Below are positions 17,948 through 36,612 of a stretch of 64,000 nucleotides of DNA, in pieces. The DNA comes from an uncultured delta proteobacterium. GTDB taxonomy: Bacteria; Desulfobacterota; Desulfuromonadia; Desulfuromonadales; CAWBQR01. Both the position numbers and the translations under genes were made by a program. A model generated the notes under the pieces. The model had not been told where the DNA came from and made no database searches. It was given only the letters and a program-made list of their open reading frames with translations. Location of the stretch: contig CAWBQR010000020.1 in the NCBI GenBank assembly GCA_963791005.1, positions 47,322 through 111,321 of the forward strand, read 5' to 3'. Numbering within the stretch: position 1 is the first letter of the stretch; each line of letters starts with the position of its first letter.

Positions 17948-18151
17948 CTTGGCAGGATTGACCGTTCAAGGCAAGGGGGGATTAATGTCACGATATTTTC
18001 TTTTTTGACGGTGAATCTGGAAATATGAGACCCTTGGAAATTCAAATTAAGATTCTCCAAATGGAACGGCTGTGCTATCTTCGCAGGAGAAAGACATCCC
18101 GGGAACCTCCTCGCCGATTCGATTTCCGGACCGGGATTGACACAGGTGCCC

Positions 18152-19886
18152 ATGAATCATCTTTCCATTCTCACAGCCCTGGCCGTGATCCTCCTGGGCG
18201 CCCTGGTCGGTGGGCGCCTGGCCGCCCTCTGCCGCATTCCCCGGGTCACCGGGTATCTCCTCGTCGGGTCTTTTCGCCGGGCCTTCCTTTGCCCGGCTTT
18301 CCGGGCTTCCGGTGCTGATCACGCCGGAAGCGCTCAAGGACCTGCGCCTGATCTCCGACGTGGCCCTGGCCCTGATCCTGATGAACATCGGCGGACAGTT
18401 CCGGGTGGAGAAGCCTGCGGCGCTGGAAGAGCCGGATCTTCCTCTTTTCCCTCGGAGAATCGGGCGTCACCTTCCTGCTGGTCGCCGCCGCCGACCTTCG
18501 GGGTCAATCTCGCCTTCCTGCAGAAGTCCGTCGCAGGGCTTTCGATCCTTCAGACCTCCCTGGTTTTCGGCCTGCTTGCTCGGCATCATCGCCGTGGCCA
18601 CCGCACCGGCGGCGACGCTGATGGTGATCCGCGAGTACGAGGCGGAAGGGCCGGTGACCGGCACCGTCCTGACCCTGGTCGGCCTCAACAACCTCGCCTC
18701 CATCCTCGCCTTCGCCCTGGCGGCCCACCTGCTCATCCGTCCTGGCGAAAGCCTGCCTCTGCTCGCCTTCCGGATGCTCGGCCCCATGCTGCTCGGCGGC
18801 CTCCTCGGTTTCCTGCTCTCGATTGCGGCCCAGTGGCTGGAGCTCTCCAGCGAGCGACAAGCTGCTGCTTCTCGGGGGCGTCGCCGCCGTCGGAGGGCTC
18901 TCCCGAGTCCTCGACCTCGACCCCATGCTCGCCAGCCTCGCCCTGGGGATGGTCCTGGCCAACAGCTCCCCCCACTGGCACCGCCTGCTCGAAGTCGCTG
19001 CGCCAGATCGACTATCCCCTTTATGTCGCCTTCTTCGTCCTGGCCGGGGCCAATCTTCATCTCGAAACCCTGACCCACATCGGCCTTCTCGGCATCGCCT
19101 ATGTCGTCGCGAGAACTCTGGGCAAGTGCTGGGGGCCTGCCTCGGCGCCCGCCTGGGGAAATTTCGGCGAACGCGAAGCGACGCTACGTCGGGTTCACCC
19201 TTCTGGCCCAGGCCGGGGTCGCCATCGGACTGGCCGGCACCCTGGCGCGCCAGTGGCCCGAGGGAGGGCATCTCATGGAGACGGTGGTCCTCGGGTCGGT
19301 GGTGGTTTTCGAGCTCATCGGCCCCCTGGCGGTACGTCACGGCCTGGTGCGCGCGGGGGAGGTGCCGATTCTGTCGCTGCTGCAGAAGCGGGCGCCGCAG
19401 GGGACCATGGAGGGACTTCACAGCGTGGTCCATCATTTCCGCTCGTCCCTGGGTCTGCCCGCCGGCCACCGGCTGCGGGACCCGGGAGACATCCTGGTGC
19501 GCCACGTCATGCGCCGCAACGTGGAGACCATCCGCAACGACACCCCTTTCAACGAACTTCTCCGGCTCATCGCCCACAGCCGCTACGACCGATTCCCGGT
19601 GGTCGACACCGAGGGGCGGTTCATCGGCATGATCAATTACACCGAAATCCGCAATCTCCTCTTCGAGCCCTCCCTTTCGCGGCTGGTCGTGGCCGGCGAC
19701 CTCGTCTCCCCCTTCCATCCTGCCATCGGTCCCGACCAGCCTCTGCGGGAGGCCCTGAAGACGATGCAGCTCAACCGGGACATCAGCTACTTTCCCGTCG
19801 CCGACCGCGACCAGCCCGACCGGCTGCTGGGCATCATCAGCCAGAACGACGTGATTGCCACCTTCCGACGCCCCGAAAATGCCTGA
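18152..19886 (+). pseudogene. Cation:proton antiporter (CPA-type) with C-terminal CBS pair; several frameshifts (as sequenced)
   Basis: MNHLSILTALAVILLGALVGGRLAALCRIPRVTGYLLVG (18152 frame); membrane segments in the 18210 and 18823 frames; C-terminus in the 19101 frame with two CBS-like repeats (ILVRHVMRRNVETI..., DLVSPFHPAIGPDQPLREAL...). Confidence 0.75.
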
Positions 19887-20197
19887 AAATCTACTTCCCC
19901 GGCCCTCCTTCAATCCTTTAAAAAATAATAATTTTTCCTCTTCCCTCCCGTTGACCTGGAAAGGGGCCTTGCTACACTTCCGGTCATCGGAAAAAGCATT
20001 TTCACTCGGAAAAATCTGATTTTCAAAGGCTGAAGGAAATCCGATCACAGCCCGAAGGATTGTGGCGCGAAACAGGAATTTGTCTTTGATTTATCCGTAG
20101 GTACCCGCTATTTCCGTGTCCATTTGCCGTTTTCGGTTTTTCCGCTCTGAAAAAAGTACCATCGGCGACGGCCCGGCGCCGGTCCGAAGGAGGCGAG

Positions 20198-20654
20198 ATG
20201 ATTACCCTCAACGTCAACGGGAAGTCGTACAAGGCGGATGTCGCAGAGGAGGTTCCCCTGCTGTGGGTCATCCGGGAGCACCTGGAGCTCACCGGAACCA
20301 AGTTCGGCTGCGGGATCGGCATGTGCGGGGCCTGCACCGTCCACATCGACGGCAAGGCCGAGCGCTCCTGCCAGGTCAAGGCCAAGGATGCCGAGGGGAA
20401 GAAAATCGTCACCATCGAAGGGCTGCCCGAGGACCATCCGGTCAAGACGGCCTGGATCGAGGAGCAGGTTCCCCAGTGCGGTTACTGCCAGCCGGGCCAG
20501 ATCATGCAGGCCTCGGCCCTGTTAAACCAGACCCCCGACCCCTCCGACGAACAGATCACCGAAGGGGATGAAAGGCAACCTCTGCCGCTGCGGAACCTAC
20601 CAGCACATCCGTAAGGCTATCAAAACGGCCGCCAAGAGGAGCAAAAAGTCATGA
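20198..20654 (+). pseudogene. (2Fe-2S)-binding small subunit of an IorA/aldehyde-oxidoreductase-type molybdoenzyme; one frameshift at the G run 20564-20567
   Basis: [11 protein letters not shown] and QCGYCQPG cluster motifs. Removing one G restores ...[32 protein letters not shown], with a stop at 20652-20654 overlapping the next ATG. Confidence 0.85.
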
Positions 20655-22827
20655 CAGCCCAAATGACCCGTCGTGAGTTCCTGGTCAGGACCTCGGCCGG
20701 CGCCGGCCTGACCATCGCCGTGGTGGCCACCCCGTTCGGCTACCGCCTCCTTTCGGCGGCCGAGGCCGCCGAAACCGAGGGGAGCATCTTCTCCCCCAAC
20801 ATCTGGCTGAATGTCGCCGGGGACGGCACCGTCACCGTCATCGTCAACAAATCGGAGATGGGCCAGGGGGTCTATACCTCTCTGCCGATGATCGTCGCCG
20901 AGGAGCTCTCCGCCGACTGGAAAAAGGTCGTCATGACCGAAGCCCCCGCGGCCGACAGGTACAAGGATCCCGTCTGGGGGATGCAGGCCACAGGCGGCAG
21001 CACCAGCGTCCGTCACATGTACGAACCTCTGAGCCTCGCCGGGGCGGCAGGGCGGGAGATGCTGATCGCGGCGGCGGCCAAAACCTGGGGGGTGCCCGAA
21101 GGCGAGTGCGAGGCCGACCGGCAGCAGGGTGAAGCACGCCAAAAGCGGCAAGACCCTCACCTTCGGCGAGCTCGCCGCCCAGGCGGGCAGCGCAGCCCGT
21201 GCCCCAGAACCCGAAGCTGAAGAACCGGGAGCAGTTTGCCATCGTCGGCGAGGCCCTCGACCGTCTCGACGTCCCCGAAAAGGTGCAGGGAAAGGCCCGC
21301 TTCGGCATCGACGCGATGCCCGAGGGGAGGCTCTATGCCTCCATCGCCCGCCCTCCGGCCTTCGGCGCCGAAACCGAAATCCTTCGACAAGAAGGCGGCC
21401 CTTAAAATCAAGGGCGTCAAGCACGTCGCCTCCCTGGAGACGGGCGTCGCCGTCTGCGCGACCTCTCTCGATGTGGCCTGGAAGGGACGCGATGCCCTGA
21501 AGGTGCAGTGGAGCGAGGGGACCCGGCCGAAGATGGACAACGACTCGCTGAAAAAGGACTTCCATGAGCACATGAAGAAGTCGGGGGTGAGCGCCCTCGA
21601 CAAGGGGGATGCGGATAAAGCCCTCTCCGCGGCGAAAAAGACGGTCGAGGCCTCCTATCTCGTTCCCTATCTCTGCCACGTGACGATGGAGCCGATGAAC
21701 TGCACCGCGTCGGTGAGCAGGGATCGCTGCGAAATCTGGGTGCCGACCCAGAACCAGAGCGGGGTGCTGAAAATGGCCCGGAAGATCACCGGGCTGAAAG
21801 CGGAACAGATCCGTGTCCACACCACCTTTCTCGGCGGCGGCTTCGGCCGGCGTTTCGAGCTCGACATGGTGGAGCCGACCCTCAAACTGGCCAAGGAGAC
21901 GGGAAAGCCGGTCAAGTGGATCTACAAGCGCGAGGAGGATACCCGGTACGACTTCTACCGCCCCTCCAGTCTCTGCCATATCACGGGAGGCCTGGACGAC
22001 TCGGGCAACATCGTCGGGTGGAAGCACAAGATCGTCTGCCCTTCCATCTGGGCCAGGGTCAACCCCGGCCGGATGGAAGGCGGCGTGGACCCCTCCGCTG
22101 TGGAAGGGGTGGTCAACACGCCCTACGAAATCCCCAGCATGCAGGTGGAATACGTCCGGATCGACCTGCCCATCCCCGTCGGCTTCTGGCGCTCGGTAGG
22201 CAACTCGATCAACGGCTTCACCATGGAAAGCTTCATGGACGAGATGGCCCACGCCGCCGGGAAGGACCCCCTGGCAGTTCCGCCTCAATCATCTCAAAAA
22301 CCACCCCCGCCCCAAAAAGCTCCTGGAGACGGTGGCCGACAAGGCCGGATGGGGCAAGAGCCTTCCCGAGGGGCAGGGCCATGGGAATCGCCCAGCACTT
22401 CTCCTTCAACTCCTACTTCGCGCAGGTGGCGGAGGTTTCGGTGGACAAGTCCTCCGGCAAGATCACGGTGCATCGCATCGTCTCCGGCGTCGACTGCGGC
22501 CGGGTGGTCAATCCGGCCATCGTCCAGGCCCAGATGCGCGGCGGGTCCCTCTTCGGTCTGAGCGCCGCACTGAAGGAGGAGGTCTCCTTCGGTAAGGGAG
22601 GCGTCGAGTCGGCCAATTTCTACAACTACCCGATCCTGCGCATCGAGGAGGCGCCGCATGTCGAAACCCACATCGTCGTGAGCGGCGCCGAGCTCGGAGG
22701 GATGGGCGAACCGCCGGTGCCCCCCATCGCCCCCGCAGTAGCCAACGCCGTTTTCGCCGCCACGGGAGCGCGCCTGCGGCAGCTGCCGATGACCCCGATG
22801 AACGTTCAGGCGGCCATGAAGAGCTGA
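20651..22827 (+). pseudogene. Molybdopterin-binding large subunit (IorB/aldehyde oxidase-xanthine dehydrogenase family) with Tat signal; at least 3 frameshifts (as sequenced)
   Basis: MTAQMTRREFLVRTSAGAGL twin-arginine leader. Collinear fragments 20651..21220, 21199..21405, 21236..22561 and 21916..22827 add up to ~725 codons. Confidence 0.8.
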
Positions 22828-22865
22828 GCTCCAGGGACCGCTCTATAAGCCGGGAGTTAAAAATT

Positions 22866-23711
22866 ATGGAAGATACGGAGATTTACGAGGAGATCATCCG
22901 CCTGAAGCGGGAGAGGATACCGGCCGCCCTGGCGATCGTCGTCGGCAGCTCCGGATCGGCCCCCCGCAAAGCGGGGGCTAAAATGCTGGTGCGCGGGGAC
23001 GGGTCGATCCTGGGGACGGTGGGGGGCGGAAAAATCGAGGCCGATACCGTCCTCGCCGTCCCCGACGTGCTGAAGGAGGGCGTCCCCAAGACCCTTTCCT
23101 TCTCCCTTATCGAGGAGCAGGGGCTTTGCTGCGGAGGCCAGGTGCAGGTCTACATCGAGCCTGTCGCCTTCCCGCCCCATCTGGTGGCCGTAGGCTCGGG
23201 CCATGTCGGCCAGGCTCTCACCCGCGCTGCCCGCCACGCCGGCTTTGCCGTCACCCTGGTCGACCCCCACCCCGAGGAGGCGGCGGGCAGGGTCGACGGC
23301 TTCCTCCCGGCCGACGTCGTCTGCCCTGTCCCGGAGATTTTCTCCCGGGTGCGGGCGGACCGCGGCACCTACATCCTCATCGCCACCCGCGGCCACAGGG
23401 ACGACTTTCTGGCCGTTCGCGAGGCCCTCTCCACGGAGGCCTGCTTCATCGGGCTGGTCGGCAGCCGGCGCAAGCGAAGCGCCCTGCACTCCTTTTTGGA
23501 GGAGGCGGGAGTTGCCGCCTCCGACGCCGACCGGGTCATATCCCCCGTCGGGCTCGACATCGGTGCCCAGACGCCGGAGGAAATCGCCGTCAGCATCCTC
23601 GCCCAGATGATCCAGCACAGGAGAAGCCATGCCGCAGGTATCCGCGATTCTTCTCGCCGCGGGAAATTCGGGACGGATGGGGCGACCCAAGCCGCTTCTT
23701 CCCCTGGGTAG
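22866..23711 (+). CDS. xdhC: XdhC-family molybdoenzyme maturation factor
   Basis: 281-aa ORF with an XdhC/CoxI N-domain (ALAIVVGSSGSAPRKAGAKMLV) and a Rossmann-like part (LVAVGSGHVGQAL). The last ~27 codons overlap the next gene, so the true stop may be earlier. Confidence 0.8.
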   Translation: MEDTEIYEEIIRLKRERIPAALAIVVGSSGSAPRKAGAKMLVRGDGSILGTVGGGKIEADTVLAVPDVLKEGVPKTLSFSLIEEQGLCCGGQVQVYIEPVAFPPHLVAVGSGHVGQALTRAARHAGFAVTLVDPHPEEAAGRVDGFLPADVVCPVPEIFSRVRADRGTYILIATRGHRDDFLAVREALSTEACFIGLVGSRRKRSALHSFLEEAGVAASDADRVISPVGLDIGAQTPEEIAVSILAQMIQHRRSHAAGIRDSSRRGKFGTDGATQAASSPG

Positions 23712-24228
23712 CCGCTCGGTCATCGAGCGCTGCCTGGAGAGCCTCTTCGCCGCAGGCGTGGAAGACGTGATCGCCGTCATCGGCCCCTCGGGAGAGGCTA
23801 TTGCCGCCGTGCTGAACGATTCGGTCATCTTCGTGCGAAACCTGGCGCCGAAAAGCGACATGGCCGCCTCGGTGCGCCTGGGGGCGCGCCGTGTCGCGCC
23901 AAGAGCTTCCGGGGTCCTGGTTGCCTTGGCCGACCATCCTCTCGTCCGCCCTTCCACCATCCGATCCCTTCTCGAAACCCATGCACGCCATCCCCACCGG
24001 ATAATCATCCCGACTTTCGGCGGGCGTAGGGGCCACCCGGTCCTTTTCCCCGGAAAAATACTCGGTGAAATTTTCGCCCTTCCGACCCTGAAGGAGGTCG
24101 TCCACAGAAACCCCGAGCGCGTCCTGCCGGTCTGCGAGTGCTCCGACCCGGGAATAATCCTCGACATGGACACTCCGGAGGATTATATTCGAATCCTGGA
24201 AATCTGGGAGCAACAGGAAATGGCTTGA
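23629..24228 (+). CDS. mocA: MobA-like nucleotidyltransferase (molybdenum cofactor cytidylyltransferase MocA-like)
   Basis: MPQVSAILLAAGNSGRMGRPKPLLPL is the signature N-terminus of MobA/MocA enzymes. 199-aa intact ORF directly after xdhC. Confidence 0.75.
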   Translation: MPQVSAILLAAGNSGRMGRPKPLLPLGSRSVIERCLESLFAAGVEDVIAVIGPSGEAIAAVLNDSVIFVRNLAPKSDMAASVRLGARRVAPRASGVLVALADHPLVRPSTIRSLLETHARHPHRIIIPTFGGRRGHPVLFPGKILGEIFALPTLKEVVHRNPERVLPVCECSDPGIILDMDTPEDYIRILEIWEQQEMA

Positions 24229-24530
24229 TGCGCGCCCGGCGTCGTTGCTGAGAGCTCGTCCTTCCTCTTACTGACAGAAATTCTTCACCTTTAAAACCCC
24301 GTTGGACACGTATAAATCTGATCGAATCGGAATAAACCGGATTCCAGCGCCCGATTTTTTCTTCAACGAAAAGAAGAGGGGTGGTATTCATGGCCTGGCT
24401 GCTGGTAGAATCCGGAACATAGAAGGCGAAAGCCTTTGCAGCGTTTTCCTGGGAAGCCAGTGCCCGGGTTGCCCGTCCGTAGCCGCCAGGCCAAGGCGGG
24501 TCACCAATCCCCATTCACGGATTTTCGGCC

Positions 24531-25241
24531 ATGTCACTCATCGAGCTGACCGACGTCACCAAGATTTATCCTCTCGGCCACCGGCATGTCACCGCCATCT
24601 CGGGCCTTAACCTGCGACTGGAGCCGGAGGAATTCACCGTCCTGGCGGGGCCTTCGGGAAGCGGGAAGACGACGGTGCTCAACCTGATCGGCTGTCTCGA
24701 CAGCCCGACGGAGGGGAAGGTCGCCGTCGAGGGGCGTGATGTCGGAGGGGACTCGGCCCGGGAGCTGGCCGACTTCCGCCTGCACAAGATCGGCTTTATC
24801 TTCCAATCCTACAACCTCATTCCGGTATTGACGGCGGAGGAAAACGCCGAGTTCACCCTGATGCTGCAGGGGGTGCCCAAGCCGGAACGCCGCCGCCGGG
24901 TGAGGGAACTCTTCACCGATCTGGGGATCGGGGGACTGGAGAACCGCAAACCCAACGACCTCTCGGGAGGCCAGCAGCAGAGGGTCTCCATCGCCCGCGC
25001 CATGGCCCCGCACCCGGCCGTGGTCCTCGCCGACGAGCCGACCGCCAACCTCGATTCCCGAACCGCAGAGGACCTTCTGGCCCTGATGCGACGTCTCAAC
25101 GAGGAGAAGGGGATGACTTTCCTCTTCAGCTCCCATGACCCCCTGGTTATCGCCTATGCCCGGCGGGTCGTCCGCCTGCGGGACGGGCACATGGAGTCGG
25201 ACATCCGACAGCAGGAGCGAGGCAATCTCCGGAACCCCTGA
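24531..25241 (+). CDS. ABC transporter ATP-binding protein (LolD/MacB/FtsE-like), no adjacent permease gene
   Basis: Walker A GPSGSGKTT, signature LSGGQQQRV, Walker B VVLADEPT; 236 aa, intact. Confidence 0.85.
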   Translation: MSLIELTDVTKIYPLGHRHVTAISGLNLRLEPEEFTVLAGPSGSGKTTVLNLIGCLDSPTEGKVAVEGRDVGGDSARELADFRLHKIGFIFQSYNLIPVLTAEENAEFTLMLQGVPKPERRRRVRELFTDLGIGGLENRKPNDLSGGQQQRVSIARAMAPHPAVVLADEPTANLDSRTAEDLLALMRRLNEEKGMTFLFSSHDPLVIAYARRVVRLRDGHMESDIRQQERGNLRNP

Positions 25242-25250
25242 CACAAAAAA

Positions 25251-25278
25251 AGAGCCGGAAATCCGGCTCTTTTTTTTA
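25251..25278. terminator. Rho-independent terminator, bidirectional (A-tract/stem/T-tract)
   Basis: AGAGCCGG-aaat-CCGGCTCT followed by T8 and preceded by A7. Lies between convergent genes. Confidence 0.8.
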
Positions 25279-25316
25279 AACTCATCCCGAGTATCCAACC
25301 CTGTCGAGCGCCTCCC

Positions 25317-26012
25317 CTAGGGAGCCGGAGCGTACTGGGTCAGCACCTGATGGAGCTTCTGCGCGGCCGGGGGGGTCTTGGGCACCTGGCCGGCCAGGAT
25401 GTCTCTGGCGGAAATATCGGGTTTGCCGTAAAACTCGCCGTTGTCGTCCGCATCGATTTTCAAGGCTGCTCCCTCCAGTGAGATTCCGGCAAATATGCCG
25501 CGGCTTCGCGAGTAGGAATAGATCTCCGCTTTGAGCTGGACATCTGTAGCCGCCTCGGCGCTGCGGCCCACGGGCCCGGCAGCCACGGCGGCATCGGCGC
25601 CCAGGGTGTATTTGCCGTGCATGATCCCCTCGACGCTGCGGGGGGATTTGAAAACCAGGAGGATGTCGGTCGAGGACGCTCCGATCTGCCAGCCGACGCT
25701 CCCTCCGTACAGTGAAATGAAGGTCGGAGGGCTCCAGTCGCCGCTTTTTTCACGCACCGCGAGGACGCCGGTCCCGTAACGGCCTCCAACGATGAACCCT
25801 GCCTTGATCACCCCCGGGATAATGGCGATCCCGTAGGCATTTTTAAGCAGTTCGGGGGGAATGGCGTTTTCAGGAACGGACATTATCTGCTGCATGACGG
25901 TGACGGCCTCACCGACTTTCTCCCCAGGTTGTTCGGCTGCCTGACCCCGGACGGGGAGAAAAATCGTCATGGCAACAAGGAAGGTTGCAAAACTGAACGA
26001 CCACTTTTTCAT
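25317..26012 (-). CDS. SYLF (DUF500/Ysc84-like) lipid-binding domain protein, secreted
   Basis: 231-aa intact ORF with a signal peptide. AIIPGVIKAGFIVGGRYGTGVL...GGSVGWQIG...LGADAAVAAGPVGR is typical of the SYLF domain. Confidence 0.75.
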   Translation of the reverse strand: MKKWSFSFATFLVAMTIFLPVRGQAAEQPGEKVGEAVTVMQQIMSVPENAIPPELLKNAYGIAIIPGVIKAGFIVGGRYGTGVLAVREKSGDWSPPTFISLYGGSVGWQIGASSTDILLVFKSPRSVEGIMHGKYTLGADAAVAAGPVGRSAEAATDVQLKAEIYSYSRSRGIFAGISLEGAALKIDADDNGEFYGKPDISARDILAGQVPKTPPAAQKLHQVLTQYAPAP

Positions 26013-26304
26013 GGTTCGGCTCCTTTCGGTCAGTGCAGGTTTCCTGTAGTTCTTTAGTCATTAAATCAGGTGCGGACCGAAAGTCAATTTTGACAAACAT
26101 AGAGAACTTCCGTGCCGAAAGGGGACGTTTCTTACCGGGGAGATGAGAAGTTCTATTTACACCGACGACACATTCGCCAGCAGGGAGGAGGCGGTCGATG
26201 CCTGCCTGGTCTCCGGCTGAAACATTGTCAACGGCCTGGAGAAAACGGCCCTGACGATCGGAATCCGCCGATGCCCCTGCGAACCATAACGAGCCCTCCT
26301 CCTT

Positions 26305-27876
26305 TTAGAAGCCCTCTACATTCGATGCCGGTCTGGCAAGGACCGGAATGTTGTCGAGCACCCTCGCCCGACTCTCCCTGTTTGTGTCGAGGGAGACCCG
26401 GTCGAGCATATACCCCGCCAGCTGAAGAAATTGCATGGCTTCTTTTCTGGCCTTTGCGTATCCGGATGGCCCGACGGGGTCGCGGGAGGGGACATAGACC
26501 AGGGCACGATGGTCGGCGTGCAGAAAAAAGGTCACATACACCCTGGGAAGACCTCCCTTTTTCAGGCCGATGACAAATGCCGAACAATACTGGCTCGGGA
26601 ACCCTTCCAGGGAAAGTTGCGAAGGACCGATGGATTGGTAAACCTCGACGACCTCGTCGGCGTCGGAATATCCGACGATGGGCAGGTTCCAATCGACCAG
26701 AAAGGAAGCGCCGGGAAAAGAGGGGCGGGAGCAGCCCCCCGGAGGCGGGCCGACCCTGGAAGCATGTCTGTCCCTGGCGCCGGTGAGCCAGTCGAGCCGT
26801 GGCAGGCTCCTGATTTCCTCCGTTTCCCCCGAACCTGTTTCCTGCCCCCGTTCCATTTTCGCCGTCACATCGGCCAATCGCTTTTCCGCCAGGGATTTCT
26901 CCGCCGCCAGCCGCTCCCGTTCCCGGCTTTCGAACTCGGCGCGCTCCCGGGTCAGTCGAAGGGCCCGGGTCAGTTCCTCAGCCCGGGTTTCCGCCCCGGC
27001 CTTCGCCGCAAGAAGCCTCTCCACCTGCGCCCTTGCCGCCGGAGCTTCCAACGCCTTTTCCCGGGTCGATCGCAGCGCCCTTGAAAGGTCTTTCAGCTGG
27101 TTTTCCAACAAAGACTTCTCTGCCGCAAGCCGTTCTCTCTCGGAACGTTCCAACTCGAAGTTCCCGACCGCCTCCCGGTAGGAGGCCAGAAGCTCTTCCA
27201 GCTTCGATTCGACCGCCCTTTTCTCGGTCTCCAGGCGTTCACCGTGGTGCCTTTCGGCGACAAGACGCTCTTTTTCGCTACGCTCCTCGGCCATCTTCGC
27301 CTCGGCCAGCCCCACCGCCTCCGTCAACTCCTGCACCCGTTTTTCAACGAGCGCCTTCTCCCGGGACAGGCGCTCCCACTGGGCCCGATCAGCCTCCAGG
27401 CGCTCCCTTTCGGTGCGTTCGACGGCGGTTTTCGCCTCAGCCAGCTGCACGGCCCTTCCCAGTTCCCGCAACTGTCTTTCCGCAAGGATCTTCTCCGCTC
27501 CCAGACGCTCCCGTTCGGCGCGTTCTTCGACCAGCCTTTCTTCGGTCAAGCGGACCGACTCGGCAAGTTCCGCGGCACGGGCTTCGGCCGCAGCCTTCTC
27601 CGCCGCCAGACGCTCGTCCCCGGCCTTTGCGGTCCTCAGCCTCTCGCGTTCGCCGCATTCGGCGGCAAGGCGCTCCTCGCTGAGCCTGACGCGCCGGGCC
27701 AACTCGGCCGCCCGAGCTTCCGCCTCTTTTTTCGCTGCAGCCAGGCGTTCTCGTTCGCGGCGTTCAGCGGCCAGCCGCTCTTCTGCCAGGCGAACGGCCC
27801 GGGTCAGATCGGAGGTCCGCTTCTCCGCCCCCGCTTTTTCGGCAGCGATCCTTTCCTGTTCTTTTTGCAGGATCAC
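26305..27876 (-). CDS. Repetitive coiled-coil protein with C-terminal unknown domain X (523 aa; GTG start overlapping the upstream stop, or the downstream part of a fused gene)
   Basis: About 9 tandem repeats of ~35 aa (..RERLAAEK...EL.RAVRL.EERL....), then a globular domain FLVDWNLPIVG...LVYVPSRDP...AGYMLDRVSL...IPVL. Confidence 0.7.
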   Translation of the reverse strand: MILQKEQERIAAEKAGAEKRTSDLTRAVRLAEERLAAERRERERLAAAKKEAEARAAELARRVRLSEERLAAECGERERLRTAKAGDERLAAEKAAAEARAAELAESVRLTEERLVEERAERERLGAEKILAERQLRELGRAVQLAEAKTAVERTERERLEADRAQWERLSREKALVEKRVQELTEAVGLAEAKMAEERSEKERLVAERHHGERLETEKRAVESKLEELLASYREAVGNFELERSERERLAAEKSLLENQLKDLSRALRSTREKALEAPAARAQVERLLAAKAGAETRAEELTRALRLTRERAEFESRERERLAAEKSLAEKRLADVTAKMERGQETGSGETEEIRSLPRLDWLTGARDRHASRVGPPPGGCSRPSFPGASFLVDWNLPIVGYSDADEVVEVYQSIGPSQLSLEGFPSQYCSAFVIGLKKGGLPRVYVTFFLHADHRALVYVPSRDPVGPSGYAKARKEAMQFLQLAGYMLDRVSLDTNRESRARVLDNIPVLARPASNVEGF

Positions 27877-28469
27877 GAAGCGCTTTTCAGCCGCCTCCTT
27901 TTCAGCCGCCTCCTTTTCGCGGCAGCCGATTCCCTGGAAGATGCCAGGCCGAATCTGATCTTTTCAACGACAAGGCCCAGCGCTTCGACCCGCGCCCGAA
28001 TCAACGCTTCGGCCCGGTCTTTCTCCCTCCCCTCCCGGGTTTGGTCCCGCTCGCCGCCAACCCTGTGCACCAAGGCTTTCCGGAAGGCCTCCGGGCTCAG
28101 AACAACCGGAAGACTGCGCACCATAACCTCCCGAAGGGCTGTACCGTAGTTGAGGTTCACCCCTTCCATGACAAACCCCAGGGCTCTTGCCAGCTCCAGG
28201 GCCGCCGCACGGAGCTTATCCTCCCCGTCCACCCCGGCCGGAAGGGAGCCGTCGGGAACATAGACCAAGCACTTGCGGCTTTCCTTGAGGTAGAGCGCGA
28301 GGTGAACCCGCCTTGTCTCTTCCCTGCGCACCAGGCATACAAAACATTCGCAGACAACCGGCGCGAGGCCCTCCAGGGGGATGGCAACGGGAAGCTGGGA
28401 CCGGTAGACGGCCTCCACTTCCGGCTCGACGGCCTGAATGCCGGGAAACGAACTGTCGAGAACGAACAT
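27873..28469 (-). CDS. Unknown protein with N-terminal copy of domain X and the start of a coiled coil (198 aa from ATG 28469)
   Basis: ATG 28469 follows GGAGG. FVLDSSFPGIQ...LVYVPDGS...LGFVMEGVNL...LPVV aligns with the C-terminal domain of the next ORF. The basic tail KRRRLKRRRLK comes from a duplicated 15-mer. Confidence 0.6.
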   Translation of the reverse strand: MFVLDSSFPGIQAVEPEVEAVYRSQLPVAIPLEGLAPVVCECFVCLVRREETRRVHLALYLKESRKCLVYVPDGSLPAGVDGEDKLRAAALELARALGFVMEGVNLNYGTALREVMVRSLPVVLSPEAFRKALVHRVGGERDQTREGREKDRAEALIRARVEALGLVVEKIRFGLASSRESAAAKRRRLKRRRLKSAS

Positions 28470-28519
28470 AGGGCCTCCGGGAGATGGCCCCGGGCGGCAG
28501 GCGCAAAAAAGCCGGGGCT

Positions 28520-28539
28520 GAAATATCATGGGATATTTC
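28520..28539. promoter_or_regulatory. Perfect 8-bp inverted repeat GAAATATC-atgg-GATATTTC upstream of the coiled-coil locus (operator candidate)
   Basis: Direct reading; 51-70 nt upstream of ATG 28469. Confidence 0.4.
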
Positions 28540-28827
28540 GGCAACCCGGCTGTCTCGGGGAGACCCTGTGGGCTTTCCGCCCCATTCTCGCGAATGGTTT
28601 AGTATTATCGTGTACCCCGTCAGGGTGATATGACGTAATGCAAATTTGATGCTTTGGCAAAAACTCATTGGATGGCTAAGCAAAAATTTCGTCCTACAAG
28701 GCCTGGTGGTTTTTCAGGGGCGAAGGCTTACATCAGGTAGGTCGAGGTCCTGAAAAAACGCCGTAAACGCCGTAGGGCGGCCTTTTTGCGACGCCATCAA
28801 ATTTATTATCAGAAACAGAGGGGTTAG

Positions 28828-29494
28828 TCAACCGGAGAGAGATGTTTTCGGGCCACGGCGCTTTTCCGCGACCACCAGAAATGGCGCCTCCCGACGATTG
28901 GGCGGCTGGAGCTTGAGAACCTGCCAGTCGTGCGACGGAAGATGGCCGAAGAGGGCCTCTACGGCGACGCCCTCCTCCGTTCCTCCGGGATGCCCCGTAT
29001 AGACCGTAACGGCCATGCGGCCGCCGGGGGCGAGAAGGCCGAGGGATTGCCTCAGGGCCTCCAGGGTCGATTCGGTCCGGGTCCTTACCTCGGGTCGCCG
29101 CCGGGGAGAAAGCCGAGATTGGCGACAATTCCCCGCGGTGATTCCGCCAGGTAGCGGGAAATTTCACTGTGGCTGTCGTGAATAAGGTGGACCCCCGGGG
29201 AAAAAGGCGCCCGGGGCTCGGACGGACTTCGGAAAAAGACCCTGGCTCCCGCCCTGCGAGCAGGGACTCGGTCCGAAGAAGGGCTTCACGCTGGATATCG
29301 AAGGCGAGGATGCGTCCCCGGGGTCCGAGGCGATGGAAGAGAAAGAGGGTGTCGCGGCCCGTTCCGGCCGTCAGGTCAAGGGCCAGGTCACCCGGACTCA
29401 GGACGTCTGCCAGGAGCCGATGGGACCAGGAAACCATCCGGGTAAAAGGTCGTTCGGCCGCCGGTTCTCCCTCATCCCGCGGAGCGGACTTCAT
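28828..29494 (-). pseudogene. Class I SAM-dependent methyltransferase (YtqB/MnmM-like); frameshifted (as sequenced)
   Basis: N-terminal part LALDLTAGTGRDTLFLFHRLGPRGRILAFDIQREAL (29494 frame); C-terminal part AVTVYTGHPGGTEEGVAVEALF...WQVLKLQPPNRREAPFLVVAEKR (28828..29016 frame). Confidence 0.65.
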
Positions 29495-29940
29495 CCAGCA
29501 CCCGAAGCTTGAGGTCGATCACCTCACGGGGGGAGAGGCGCAGAAGGGTCGTCAGCTGGCGCATCAGGGCGTCCTCGTAGCGGTCGAGGGTACCGTCGGC
29601 GTAGACGATACGCCAGAGGGATTCCACGAAGTCGAGCTTTTCCTCGGTTGTGAAATTTTCGTTGATTTCCCGGGTAAACTGGTAGAGGTCCGGACTGGAC
29701 TCCCTTTCGCGGCGGGAAATCTGTCATCAACTCGGTCACCGCCTCGGCGGAAATTTCGAAATTTCGTTGCAGCAGGTCCCGGATGAGATGGGATTCGTCC
29801 TCGTTGAAGTCGCTGTCCGTCAGGGCCATCTCCAGAAGAAGGGCGCACGCCGCAATCCGGAGGCGTTCCTGGGGCGTCCGGGGCCCCTGGCGGGAGTTCG
29901 GTTTCGTTCCCAGCAGGCCTTTGAGTCGGTCGAGGATCAT
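29472..29940 (-). pseudogene. TerB-family (tellurite-resistance-like) protein; one frameshift (as sequenced)
   Basis: MILDRLKGLLG...RIAACALLLEMALTDSDFNEDE, then in another frame ...DLYQFTREINENFTTEEKLDFVESLWRIVYADGTLDRYEDALMRQLTTLLRLSPREVIDLKLRVLDE. Confidence 0.65.
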
Positions 29941-30278
29941 TTTTTCCCTTCCCTGTAGTGGATCACCCGGGCGCGTTCCAGTGTGACCATCCCACCGTGG
30001 AGCATCCCGTCGAGCCGGGGAAGAATGGCGTCGATTTTCTCCTGGTTGTCCACCACCTCGATGACCACCGGCAGGTCGGAGGAAAGGCGCAGGAGCTTGT
30101 CGGTGTGGGTTGTGCTGTGGGCGCCGAAGCCCATGGCGCCCTTCAAAACCGTGGCGCCGGCAAACCCCTCGACCCGAAACAATTCCACCAGCGCCTCGTA
30201 CAGGGGCTGATGCTCCCACCGGTCGTTCTCTCCGACAAAGATGCGCATCAGGGTCTGTTCACCTTCCAGTCGCGACAT
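29937..30278 (-). CDS. DUF190 domain protein (commonly paired with crcB)
   Basis: MSRLEGEQTLMRIFVGENDRW...PLYEALVELFRVEGFAGATVLKGAMGFG. Start codon 30278 lies 16 nt after the crcB stop. Confidence 0.75.
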   Translation of the reverse strand: MSRLEGEQTLMRIFVGENDRWEHQPLYEALVELFRVEGFAGATVLKGAMGFGAHSTTHTDKLLRLSSDLPVVIEVVDNQEKIDAILPRLDGMLHGGMVTLERARVIHYREGKK

Positions 30279-32135: not shown

Positions 32136-33710
32136 ATGTCCGAACTGCATAAGCGTATCCGAAGAACGAGTCTCCACGACAGGGTCAGGAAGGTCGAAGA
32201 AGTCCTCCCCATGTTCCGCAACGGCATGAGCCTCGGCTGGTCCGGCTTCACCCCCGCCGGCTATCCCAAGGAGATTCCCATCGCCCTTGCCGACCATGTC
32301 GAAAAGAACAATCTTCAGGGGCAGCTGCGTTTCAACCTCTTTATCGGCGCCTCGGTGGGGGTGGAAACCGAGGACCGCTGGGCCTCGCTGGACATGATCG
32401 ACCGCCGCTGGCCCTACCAGACGGGCAAAAATATCCAGAAGGGGATCAACAGCGGCAAGATCCGCATGGGCGACAAACACCTTTCGATGTTCGCCCAGGA
32501 CCTCGGCTACGGCTTCTACACCAAGGACAACGGTGGCCGCCTCGACCTGGCCATCATCGAGGTCTCGGCCGTCACCGAGGACTGCGGGCTCGTTCTCACC
32601 AGCTCCTGCGGGGCCGTCCCCGAGATCTGCCAGATCGCCGACAGGATCGTTCTCGAGGTCAACACGGCCGTCCCCTCTTATGAGGGCCTGCACGACATCA
32701 TCGAGCCGGTCAACCCGCCGAACCGTCCTCCCTTTCTCATCAGCCGCGTCAACGACCGGGCCGGGCGCCCCTTCGTCCCCGTAGACCCCGACAAAATCGT
32801 CGCCATCGTCGAATCAAAGCGCCTCGACAACGGCCGCGCTTTCGGAGAACTGGACGAGACCGCCGAGCGGATCGCCGGCCACATCATCGATTTCTTCCGG
32901 GCCGAGGTCGCCGCCGGTCGGCTGCCGAAGGACCTTCTTCCCCTCCAGTCCGGCGTCGGGAGCATCGCCAATGCGGTCATCGGCGGCCTGGCGAGCGGTC
33001 CCTTTTCCGGCCTTCGGGTCTGGACCGAGGTGCTGCAGGACACGATGCTTGACCTCTTCGACTCGGGCAAGCTCGATTTTGCCTCCACCGTCTCCCTCTC
33101 CTTCTCCAACGAGGGCTTTAAACGTTTTTACGCCAATTGGGAGAAATACAGCGACAAGGTCCTGATGCGGCCCCTCTCGGTGGCCAATCACCCCGAGCCG
33201 ATCCGCCGCCTGGGCTGCATCGCCATGAACACCCCGGTGGAGTTCGACATCTACGCCCATGCCAACTCCACCCTGGTCGGCGGCACCCGGATGATCAACG
33301 GCATCGGCGGCTCAGGAGACTTTCTGCGCAACGCTTATCTCTCCATCATGCACACTCCGTCTGTGCGCCCCAGCAAAACCGACCCCACGGGCATCACCTG
33401 CGTAGTGCCGATGGTCACCCACTGCGACCATACCGAACACGACCTCGACGTCCTGGTCACCGAACAGGGCCTGGCCGACCTGCGAGGGCTCGCTCCCAGG
33501 GAGCGGGCACAGCTCATCATCGACCGCTGTGCCCACCCCGATTACCGCCCTATGCTCCAGGACTATTTCGACCGGGCCCGGCACGAGTGCCTTGCCAAGG
33601 GAGCCGGGCACGAACCTCACCTGCTGTTCAAGGTCTTCAGCATGCAGCAGAGCCTGGCGGAAAAGGGGACCATGAAAATCGACGGATGGGACTCTGCAAT
33701 ACTCCCCTGA
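32136..33710 (+). CDS. Acetyl-CoA hydrolase/transferase family protein (succinyl:acetate CoA-transferase type), paralog 1
   Basis: 524-aa intact ORF, collinear with the paralog at 35029..36612 (GWSGFTPAGYPKE, FIGASVGVETEDRWA, LQSGVGSIANAV, NTPVE.D.YAHANST all shared). Confidence 0.85.
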   Translation: MSELHKRIRRTSLHDRVRKVEEVLPMFRNGMSLGWSGFTPAGYPKEIPIALADHVEKNNLQGQLRFNLFIGASVGVETEDRWASLDMIDRRWPYQTGKNIQKGINSGKIRMGDKHLSMFAQDLGYGFYTKDNGGRLDLAIIEVSAVTEDCGLVLTSSCGAVPEICQIADRIVLEVNTAVPSYEGLHDIIEPVNPPNRPPFLISRVNDRAGRPFVPVDPDKIVAIVESKRLDNGRAFGELDETAERIAGHIIDFFRAEVAAGRLPKDLLPLQSGVGSIANAVIGGLASGPFSGLRVWTEVLQDTMLDLFDSGKLDFASTVSLSFSNEGFKRFYANWEKYSDKVLMRPLSVANHPEPIRRLGCIAMNTPVEFDIYAHANSTLVGGTRMINGIGGSGDFLRNAYLSIMHTPSVRPSKTDPTGITCVVPMVTHCDHTEHDLDVLVTEQGLADLRGLAPRERAQLIIDRCAHPDYRPMLQDYFDRARHECLAKGAGHEPHLLFKVFSMQQSLAEKGTMKIDGWDSAILP

Positions 33711-35028: not shown

Positions 35029-36612
35029 ATGCCTTACGGAACCCTGGAAAGTCGTATCCGTCGCAAGTCCCTGCTCAGCAAGGTCATGAAGGCTGAAGAC
35101 ACCATCAAGTTCTTCAAACCCGGCATGAACCTCGGCTGGTCAGGCTTTACCCCTGCCGGCTATCCCAAAGAGGTGCCCATCGCCTTGGCCGACTACGTCG
35201 AGCAGAACAGCCTGCAGGGCAAGTGGAAGTTCAACCTCTTCATCGGCGCCTCGGTGGGCGTCGAAACCGAAGACCGCTGGGCCACCCTCGACATGATCGA
35301 CCGCCGCTGGCCTTACCAGACCGGCAAGAACATCCAGAAGGGGATCAACAGCGGCAAGATCCGCATGGGCGACAAGCACTTGGGTCACTTCGCCCAGGAC
35401 GTCGGCTACGGTTTCTACACCGAGAACGGCCGGATGGACGTCGCCATCATCGAGGTGTCGGCCATCACCGAGGACTGCGGCCTGGCCCTGACCTCCTCCT
35501 GCGGCATCGTTCCCGAACTGATGACGGTCGCCGACAAGATCATCCTCGAGGTCAACACCGGAGAGCCCTCCTTCGAGGGGATCCACGACATCATCATGCA
35601 GCAGAAGCCGCCCCACAGGCAGCCCTTCCTCATCACCTCGGCCGAGCAGCGCGTCGGCTCCCCCTATGTCCCCTGCGACCCCGACAAGATCATCGCCATC
35701 GTCGAGTCCAAGCGCCGCGACAAGGGTCGGGCTTTCGCCGAGCAGGACGCAAGCTCCGAGGCGATTGCCGGTCATATCCTCGACTTCTTCCACCATGAGG
35801 TGAAGAAAGGCCGTCTCCCCGAGAACCTGCTCCCCCTGCAGTCCGGCGTCGGCTCCATTGCCAACGCGGTGGTGGGCGGTCTGTGCAAGGGCGATTTCTG
35901 GAACCTCTCCGTCTACACCGAGGTCCTTCAGGACACCATGCTCGACCTCTTCGACTCGGGCAAACTGAACTTCGCCTCGGCCTGCTCCCTCTCCCTCTCG
36001 GAGACCCCGGGTTTTCCCCGCTTCTTCGATGCCTGGGACAAGTACTTCGACAAGATCGTGCTGCGGCCCCTCTCGGTCTCCAACGCGCCGGAGCCGATCC
36101 GCCGCCTGGGGTGTATCGCCATGAACACCCCCGTCGAGATCGACATGTACGCCCATGCCAACTCGACCCTGGTCGGCGGCACACGAATGATCAACGGCCT
36201 CGGCGGCTCGGGCGACTTCCTGCGCAACGGCTACCTGAAGATCATGCACACCCCGTCGATCCGTCCCAGCAAGACCGACCCCCTCGGCATCACCTGCGTC
36301 GTGCCGAAGGCCCCGCACATCGACCACACCGAGCACGACCTCGACTGCGTCGTCACCGAGCAGGGTCTGGCCGACCTGCGCGGCCTGGCGCCGAAGGATC
36401 GGGCCAAGGCCATCATCGAAAAATGCGCCCATCCCGAGTACAAGCCGATCCTGCAGTCCTACCTCGAAATGGCTTCCAGCGAATGCCTGGCCAAGGGGAT
36501 CGGCCACGAACCGCAGCTCTTCGACCGCTGTTTCAAGATGCAGCAGAACCTCGCCGCCAACGGCACCATGCGCATCAAGAACTGGGATATCAAGGTCGAC
36601 CTCTGCGAATAA
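35029..36612 (+). CDS. Acetyl-CoA hydrolase/transferase family protein (succinyl:acetate CoA-transferase type), paralog 2
   Basis: 527-aa intact ORF preceded by AGGAGGAG; most positions are identical to paralog 1 by eye. Confidence 0.85.
   Translation: MPYGTLESRIRRKSLLSKVMKAEDTIKFFKPGMNLGWSGFTPAGYPKEVPIALADYVEQNSLQGKWKFNLFIGASVGVETEDRWATLDMIDRRWPYQTGKNIQKGINSGKIRMGDKHLGHFAQDVGYGFYTENGRMDVAIIEVSAITEDCGLALTSSCGIVPELMTVADKIILEVNTGEPSFEGIHDIIMQQKPPHRQPFLITSAEQRVGSPYVPCDPDKIIAIVESKRRDKGRAFAEQDASSEAIAGHILDFFHHEVKKGRLPENLLPLQSGVGSIANAVVGGLCKGDFWNLSVYTEVLQDTMLDLFDSGKLNFASACSLSLSETPGFPRFFDAWDKYFDKIVLRPLSVSNAPEPIRRLGCIAMNTPVEIDMYAHANSTLVGGTRMINGLGGSGDFLRNGYLKIMHTPSIRPSKTDPLGITCVVPKAPHIDHTEHDLDCVVTEQGLADLRGLAPKDRAKAIIEKCAHPEYKPILQSYLEMASSECLAKGIGHEPQLFDRCFKMQQNLAANGTMRIKNWDIKVDLCE

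Follow-up and report, generated by a model that had tools for sequence, protein, structure and literature searches.

Bacterial intermediate filament (IF)-like and coiled-coil-rich proteins include crescentin, FilP and Scy (PMC2680258). Here we analyse a stretch of 64,000 nucleotides (nt) from an uncultured delta proteobacterium (GenBank assembly GCA_963791005.1, contig CAWBQR010000020.1, positions 47,322 to 111,321), hereafter the window, in which a minus-strand locus (28469->26305) encodes a long coiled-coil rod with a copy of one globular domain, here called X, at either end. Proteins of the crescentin/FilP type have a short, non-globular head and tail, whereas the ends of the X-rod-X protein are conserved globular domains of 130 aminoacids (aa) that are homologous to each other. 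The likeness to crescentin, FilP and Scy lies in a long, dominant heptad rod that is fast-evolving and repeat-rich, in a lineage-restricted distribution, and in a probably cytoplasmic and non-enzymatic nature; no sequence homology to IF-like proteins was detected with Pfam and NCBIfam, either for the open reading frames (ORFs) of the window or for ten relatives. Globular termini parted by several hundred coiled-coil residues are likewise found in SMC, Rad50 and MukB, but X-rod-X has no Walker A/B or ABC signature and no SMC_N or AAA match in Pfam, and its termini duplicate one fold instead of being two halves of one ATPase. Golgins and EEA1 offer an analogy only: these eukaryotic tethers bridge sites tens of nm apart by a parallel dimeric rod that bears a binding module at each end, a logic that X-rod-X may share, but they have no homology with X-rod-X, which is bacterial and in which a novel duplicated fold takes the place of GRIP, FYVE or Rab-binding modules at the ends. 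Bacterial coiled-coil-rich structural proteins are known as a kind, but the libraries searched contain no description of domain X, of its ancient duplication or of the dumbbell layout.

The N-terminal (N-type) and C-terminal (C-type) copies of X in the window are 29% identical over 126 aa (BLASTP, E=5e-15), and the family profiles of the two types match each other with a probability of 99.9% and an E-value of 5.9e-35 (hhalign). By these measures, their likeness far exceeds compositional similarity, in agreement with an earlier reading of the window made from the DNA letters and predicted ORFs alone (hereafter, the sequence-only reading), which had taken the two ends for homologous. Among orthologues, identity is 31% between N-type domains and 30% between C-type domains, but only 22-23% between N- and C-type domains, irrespective of whether the two are drawn from one protein or from different proteins. 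Because N-N and C-C identities exceed N-C identity even inside a single protein, the duplication of X predates the radiation of the family, with both copies retained since. The two types share a core comprising F2, S24, G34, C40-x-A-[YF]-x-C45, V-Y, L-V-Y-x-P, A90, F93, G98-F99, M-E and L106. The N-type alone has a nearly invariant helix, VNL[NK]Y[SG]xA[ML]REV[VI]xR (signature VNLNYGTALREVMVRS in the window protein), with A111, R113 and V115 among its specific conserved positions, and F8, N33, G41, P79 and Q-P are confined to the C-type. The C-x4-C pair lies on one β-strand, its two positions being conserved at 58% and 90% in the N-type and at 87% and 60% in the C-type; the N-type X of the window holds both C40 and C45 (~28335-28352), and its C-type copy has lost the second Cys. 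Domains of both types are mildly acidic, with a median isoelectric point of 6.3 (N-type) and 5.2 (C-type), and the idea that X primarily binds DNA or anionic membranes was rejected on that account.

An AlphaFold2 (AF2) model of X built on a two-sequence alignment was unusable (predicted local distance difference test score, pLDDT, of 47.7) and was replaced by one built on an alignment of 56 sequences, which reached a pLDDT of 94.6 and a predicted template modelling (TM) score of 0.88. The predicted α/β domain has β-strands at residues 2-5, 18-24, 28-30, 38-49, 52-61, 66-72 and 101-104, a long helix at 80-96 and further helices at 110-118 and 126-134. Foldseek searches initiated with this model gave no significant match among 350,542 PDB chains (best E=0.42, TM<=0.34) or in BFVD (best E=0.083, TM<=0.44). 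The weak PDB matches include 2ph0 and SciW, though these are insignificant (E>=0.4, TM<=0.34, probability<=0.35). Domains resembling type III secretion system (T3SS) chaperones and Eag proteins (DUF1795, SciW) share with X the order of elements, in which a long helix comes after a meander of three strands, but neither the search of PDB sequences with the X profile nor family scans of single domains gave any sequence signal to them. The best hit of the former search (hmmsearch with the 56-sequence profile, E=0.0019) is to designed helical repeat proteins and is no real match.

Curated libraries (Pfam-A 2025, NCBIfam r20 and PADLOC 2.0) were searched at the curated threshold of each family. The best Pfam hit of the window ORFs is RNA_pol_L at E=0.14 and 12 bits (cutoff 24), and NCBIfam gave nothing meaningful, with SMC_prok_A at E=0.96 and 7 bits matching coiled coil only; PADLOC returned no match for the window protein. 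Ten full-length relatives yielded only sub-threshold compositional hits in Pfam, to Golgin_A5 (18 bits, in one member) and to HC2 (30.5 bits; cutoff 40), and when the 56 X domains were scanned singly no curated family was matched by more than two of them. X is therefore without a detectable relative in the curated families or solved structures searched, which accords with the failure of the sequence-only reading to recognize it. A simple hydropathy test, as distinct from a dedicated predictor, found no signal peptide or transmembrane helix, in agreement with that reading. The single hydrophobic window of the protein (Kyte-Doolittle value 1.89, residues 28-46) has E, P and G among its residues and corresponds to a β-hairpin of the X model, whose first β-strand is the N-terminus, MFVLDSSFPG.

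Searching 1.84 billion cluster representatives with a profile of the two X copies revealed a family of 435 clusters (at 50% identity) with E<1e-3, 81 of them with E<1e-30; word-index homology searches had given few proteins. X lies at both extreme ends of one protein of 430-1160 aa in 135 of the 151 best representatives, and most matches with a single X are short, resembling fragments cut off at the end of a contig. A scan of genome contigs with the full protein found nothing, whereas scanning GTDB species genomes by degenerate pattern, with an alignment of the N domain alone, gave 24 loci. These are confined to Geobacter, Geobacteraceae, Desulfuromonadales and 'Deltaproteobacteria', in metagenome-assembled genomes (MAGs) or cultured strains, the latter being Geomobilimonas luticola JCM 17780 (where the protein has 860 aa), Geobacter sp. 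AOG1, Geomonas silvestris and Geomonas limicola. A description of the family was not found in the literature on Geobacter coiled-coil and cytoskeleton proteins. On the evidence of sequence comparison, X-rod-X is a conserved, chromosomally encoded and previously undescribed family.

The middle region of the 135 two-ended members spans 162-889 aa (median 457) and is rich in A (19%), E (15%), L (10%), R (8%) and K (6%). In the window protein it consists of nine units, eight of them with 34, 35, 45, 35, 45, 45, 37 and 36 aa and the ninth incomplete, each opening with an E[RK]ERL-like sequence, and the 35-aa unit corresponds to five heptads, much as the sequence-only reading had it when it described ~35-aa repeats of five heptads, some with 10-aa insertions. 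The strong hydrophobes of this rod recur with a periodicity of 3.5 residues (z=6.8 against shuffles), as they do across the family (median z of 6.6; z>3 in 87% of members), and the central heptad rod of several hundred residues by which IF-like proteins are recognized is therefore present. The signal depends on the scale used: with Kyte-Doolittle values and Ala counted as hydrophobic there is no 3.5-residue signal and a spurious period-5 peak appears, whereas restriction to strong hydrophobes gives clear heptads. Pro and Gly together make up 15-22% of the residues beside both X domains and fall to a minimum of 2.5-3% at the mid-point (135 members). The middle region is accordingly pictured as an unbroken rod that is flexibly jointed to the X domain on either side and lacks a hinge at its center. 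At a coiled-coil rise of 0.148 nm per residue, the 337-aa rod of the window protein would be ~50 nm long if continuous. Repeat expansions can be one-sided, as in P0033, where nine identical 15-aa units lie beside the N domain only, and P0014 has NRAELTQ repeated five times; the rod seems to evolve through gain and loss of tandem repeats. We also note that a 10-aa indel (AEFESRERER) separates the window from a 98%-identical strain, indicative of ongoing repeat slippage in the rod.

Taken as a whole, we hold with somewhat better than even confidence that the locus is one gene of the new X-rod-X family and encodes a cytoplasmic, parallel spacer, tether or scaffold with protein-binding ends. The steps of this proposal are given in falling order of confidence. 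The protein would be cytoplasmic and non-enzymatic, and a cytoplasmic housekeeping setting is favored by the lack of a signal peptide or transmembrane helix, by housekeeping neighbors that vary by lineage, and by the absence of viral or defense matches. It would form a parallel, in-register homo-oligomer, probably a dimer. The main argument for parallel pairing, an inferential one, is that the 10-aa strain indel and the one-sided repeat expansions are tolerated; a parallel homo-oligomer alone would accommodate such changes automatically. The N-type domains would then be gathered at one end and the C-type domains ~50 nm away, each flexibly tethered. Because the two X types keep a common core while their conserved surfaces differ, they may be protein-binding or self-association modules, and the resulting dumbbell would perhaps act as a spacer, tether or scaffold that links or organizes partners at a set distance, with further assembly through X-X contacts being possible. 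If so, Geobacter, Geomonas, Geotalea and their relatives carry a conserved, wholly unannotated structural protein, and the new domain and dumbbell design would be added to the few coiled-coil scaffolds of bacteria. The family has a restricted taxonomic range and as yet no tie to a long-standing question, but it is carried by cultured, genetically approachable hosts.

A modular binding role is also favored by the mild acidity of the domains and by variants without a coiled coil. Three relatives (P0004, P0005 and P0010) are coil-less and carry three or four X domains on Pro-rich linkers, each with exactly one N-type module, not always the first, and two or three C-type modules, and they end in an amphipathic-looking tail, [LI]xRI[MLI][GA]SF. 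Short motifs further distinguish the subfamilies. In the subfamily to which the window protein belongs (window-type), RRPPPPGA-F-VDWDL stands right before the C domain (PSFPGASFLVDWNL in the window protein) and the C-terminal tail reads P..[VA][QE]GF or AGNF; it is carried by P0003, P0015, P0016, P0019, P0029, P0032, P0038, P0040, P0045, P0048, P0135 and P0150, the window protein ends in NVEGF (26308-26322), and the tail looks like a docking or membrane-targeting peptide. Geobacter-type members have DPF[AG]F[LM] in an acidic, probably disordered linker, 20-40 aa before the C-type X. This motif is found by regular expression in 17 of the 135 members (including P0007, P0009, P0018, P0020, P0021, P0031, P0033, P0035, P0037, P0047, P0054, P0055 and P0059) and is absent from the window protein. 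These observations suggest that X is a module for interactions that can be moved between protein contexts, with the short linear motifs as putative extra docking elements.

The same domain arrangement may be read as that of a polymer, in which the N-type X of one parallel dimer binds the C-type X of the next, so that filaments or networks form and the protein is a new bacterial cytoskeletal element. We consider this unlikely, though several features are in keeping with it: the X types are homologous yet conserved separately, every multi-X variant has at least one N-type and at least one C-type module, flexible linkers lie on both sides of the rod, and the gene stands alone, without a conserved partner gene. 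The differing conserved surfaces could equally suit two external partners, however, and the length of the rod is highly variable. A more specific proposal, that X is a new fold whose heterotypic N-C contact builds a head-to-tail polymer or lets dimers bridge two defined cellular sites, has in our view a rather low probability; if correct, it would define a new class of bacterial protein, cytoskeletal or tethering in function and restricted to Geobacter-like Desulfuromonadia and relatives of these, in which the coil-less multi-X variants represent a second mode of assembly.

Comparably doubtful is a multivalent cross-linker, in which X would bind a repeated surface of a cytoplasmic particle, polymer or condensate and bridge it, in analogy with CcmM, a multi-module linker whose modules bind Rubisco. 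The presence of two to four X domains per chain, with either a rod or flexible Pro-rich linkers between them, and the conserved linker and tail motifs (DPFAFL in the Geobacter-type, RRPPPPGA and the C-terminal xGF in the window-type) would suit such a function, but in none of the lineages examined does a neighboring gene encode a candidate target, and in sequence the N type cannot stand in for the C type or the reverse.

Homologous domains at both ends of a long coiled coil, distinct but related as the N and C types are, also recall split-head proteins such as SMC and Rad50, and the chain could in principle fold back into an antiparallel intramolecular hairpin with the two X domains paired as a pseudo-dimeric head. 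We regard this as very improbable. In contrast to SMC, Rad50 and MukB, there is no central hinge, as the Pro and Gly minimum at the mid-point indicates, and the arm asymmetries are incompatible with antiparallel fold-back, in which the one-sided repeat expansions and the 10-aa strain indel would throw the arms out of register. Moreover, the C-proximal middle of Geobacter-type members is a long, acidic, disordered linker and not a coiled coil, ATPase motifs are lacking, and the SMC match in NCBIfam is the insignificant one mentioned above.

The X-rod-X gene is broken in the window into two ORFs. ORF A (28469->27873) encodes 198 aa from an ATG that matches the family-wide M1-F2 start and has GGAGG 4 nt 5' of it; in the ORF listing, its frame reaches further 5', to a TTG at 28544. 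ORF B (27876->26305) encodes 523 aa from a GTG, which overlaps the TGA stop of ORF A as GTGA. The sequence-only reading had noted this overlap and a 15-nt duplication at the junction, both of which are present, and had weighed a pair of coupled genes against one frameshifted gene, to be restored by adding a base to the T4 run at 27914-27917. The latter alternative is backed by the family and by a sibling sequence. By exact look-up, ORF A falls into the same 90% cluster as P0002, a protein of 711 aa. The contig of P0002 (ENA ERZ25039500 contig_33850; locus L001) shows synteny and ~98% nt identity with the window and carries a single 711-aa ORF with one extra base at 27919/27920. The junction reads GCTGCCGCCGAAAAGG in L001 and GCTGCCGCGAAAAGG in the window, the missing base being a C on the minus strand. 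One base added near 27914-27920 does join the frames into a 721-aa protein, as the sequence-only reading had foreseen, but the missing base adjoins the T4 run, 2-3 nt away and with the same effect on the frame, and is not inside it. Within the gene, the sole other length difference from L001 is the in-frame 30-nt indel that accounts for the 10 aa noted above. The deletion shifts the frame, and the apparent stop of ORF A and start of ORF B arise 45 nt downstream; the GTGA overlap is thus a by-product of the frameshift. Read in the correct frame, the 15-nt repeat yields (EKEAA)n where the rod begins, and P0002 has AAAEKEAAEKEAAEK there.

Frame changes at 18000-30000 of the window were mapped by tblastn of the proteins called on L001. 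They occur once in the X-rod-X gene, once in TerB (at 29723), twice in the rRNA methylase (at 29257 and 29091), once in Fer2 and repeatedly in the Na/H exchanger and MoCoBD genes, the indel sites for these last three being ~20563, 18265-19175 and 21121-22375. Four frame-breaking indels lie inside 1.8 kb, in three adjacent genes. Pfam coverage follows suit: the TerB profile is matched over positions 1-117 of 118 in L001 and 1-48 of 118 in the window, rRNA_methylase over 1-134 of 137 in L001 and nowhere in the window, and Na_H_Exchanger and CBS are matched in L001 and unmatched in the window. Because a 98%-identical sibling is intact and 135 of the 151 best relatives are single ORFs, we conclude from these comparisons that the locus is a single protein-coding gene and not two, and because frame-breaking 1-nt indels also hit neighboring genes that are intact in the sibling, the split has most probably arisen as an error of sequencing or assembly. 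That the split is real and functional, giving a coupled 198-aa N-type X and a 523-aa rod plus C-type X or reflecting programmed frameshifting or phase variation, is most improbable: the GTGA overlap, the frame of ORF B open for 523 codons, the 198-aa product standing in the database as called and an independently split orthologue in Geomonas silvestris may be cited for it, but the sibling and the family are unbroken, where programmed frameshifting calls for a shift conserved in orthologues along with a slippery site, no X XXY YYZ slippery heptamer was found at the site (GCG AAA AGG), no Shine-Dalgarno (SD)-like sequence was found at a proper distance before the GTG of ORF B, and the clustering of indels here and elsewhere in the window implicates the assembly rather than the gene. 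With an assembly so rich in indels, any further ORF of the window that looks split or unusually extended is suspect as an artefact until checked.

Returning to the single-gene spacer, tether or scaffold that we favor, some points weigh against it. The conserved C-x4-C pair might mean a cofactor, metal-binding or redox role and not pure binding. All named relatives are annotated as 'hypothetical protein' (NCBI, JGI). The orthologue in the draft genome of Geomonas silvestris Red330 (NZ_BLXX01000009.1, L022:10001-12378) is independently split into two overlapping ORFs, and for the window itself a very recent, strain-specific real frameshift is at most a residual alternative. The frameshift of G. 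silvestris sits in a Pro-rich (CCG-rich) linker past the N domain, and the gene is intact in its close relative G. limicola (L025).

The coordinates of the locus are collected in Table 1. These two X domains are the only ones in the window.

Table 1. Features of the X-rod-X locus, in window coordinates. The parts of the protein follow one another from the N- to the C-terminus as N-type X, neck (helical, Gly/Pro-containing), coiled-coil rod, linker and C-type X.
Feature	Position	Strand	Remark or basis
Shine-Dalgarno-like GGAGG	28474..28478	-	read from sequence
Whole gene as it should read	26305..28469	-	~721 codons, ~80 kDa; stop codon 26305-26307
N-type X, residues 1 to ~127	28089..28469	-	BLASTP against C copy, family profiles, AF2
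1-nt deletion relative to sibling strain, GCTGCCGC[C]GAAAAGG	27919..27920	-	tblastn frames -3 then -2
15-nt tandem repeat, 2.4 copies, 100% match	27883..27918	-	Tandem Repeats Finder
GTGA overlap	27873..27876	-	GTG of ORF B and TGA of ORF A
Coiled-coil rod, 337 aa, nine E/R/A/L-rich repeats	26848..27858	-	translation, repeat layout, periodicity
In-frame 30-nt indel relative to sibling (10 aa, AEFESRERER), CGGGAGCG direct repeats on both sides	26920..26949	-	
Gly/Pro-containing linker from rod to C-type X (GQETGSGE...GPPPGGCSR)	26725..26847	-	translation
C-type X, 139 aa, with C-terminal tail ...P.SNVEGF kept in subfamily	26308..26724	-	

The sequence-only reading had called for a survey of orthologues and their neighbors, and the picture that emerges is of one gene with related X domains at both ends and of no gene partner conserved across lineages (neighbor clustering and nine neighborhoods of family members). 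In window-type genomes a crcB-DUF190-terB-rRNA methylase arrangement lies upstream and a Ysc84-domain gene usually comes next after, with intergenic gaps of 200-590 nt; one window-type locus is wholly without the crcB-DUF190-terB-rRNA methylase arrangement. Because the flanking proteins are still 70-80% identical, this synteny is a sign of shared ancestry and not evidence of a functional link. X-rod-X is the fastest-evolving gene locally, with 34-61% identity against 70-91% for sigma and CrcB. Elsewhere, the gene lies next to others that bear no relation to these, namely PLD and MutS2 (Geotalea), EttA and BioB (Geomobilimonas), ArsR, Opp, SpoIID and QueA (Geobacter MAGs) and, in another, S4 and the CCA-adding enzyme. 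A phage or defense origin of the gene was considered and rejected, as neither a viral contig nor a PADLOC family was matched. In Geotalea toluenoxydans (L026:8001-12913), the stop of the family gene overlaps the start of a MutS2/Smr gene by 4 nt, which suggests possible co-transcription with MutS2/Smr in that lineage only. Farther along the window, paralogous acetyl-CoA hydrolase/transferase genes (32136-33692 and 35029-36609; ~78% nt identity) flank a YfiO/BamD-like TPR gene, and in the close relative L030 and the other related genomes examined only one copy of the acetyl-CoA hydrolase/transferase gene is present in the stretch examined.

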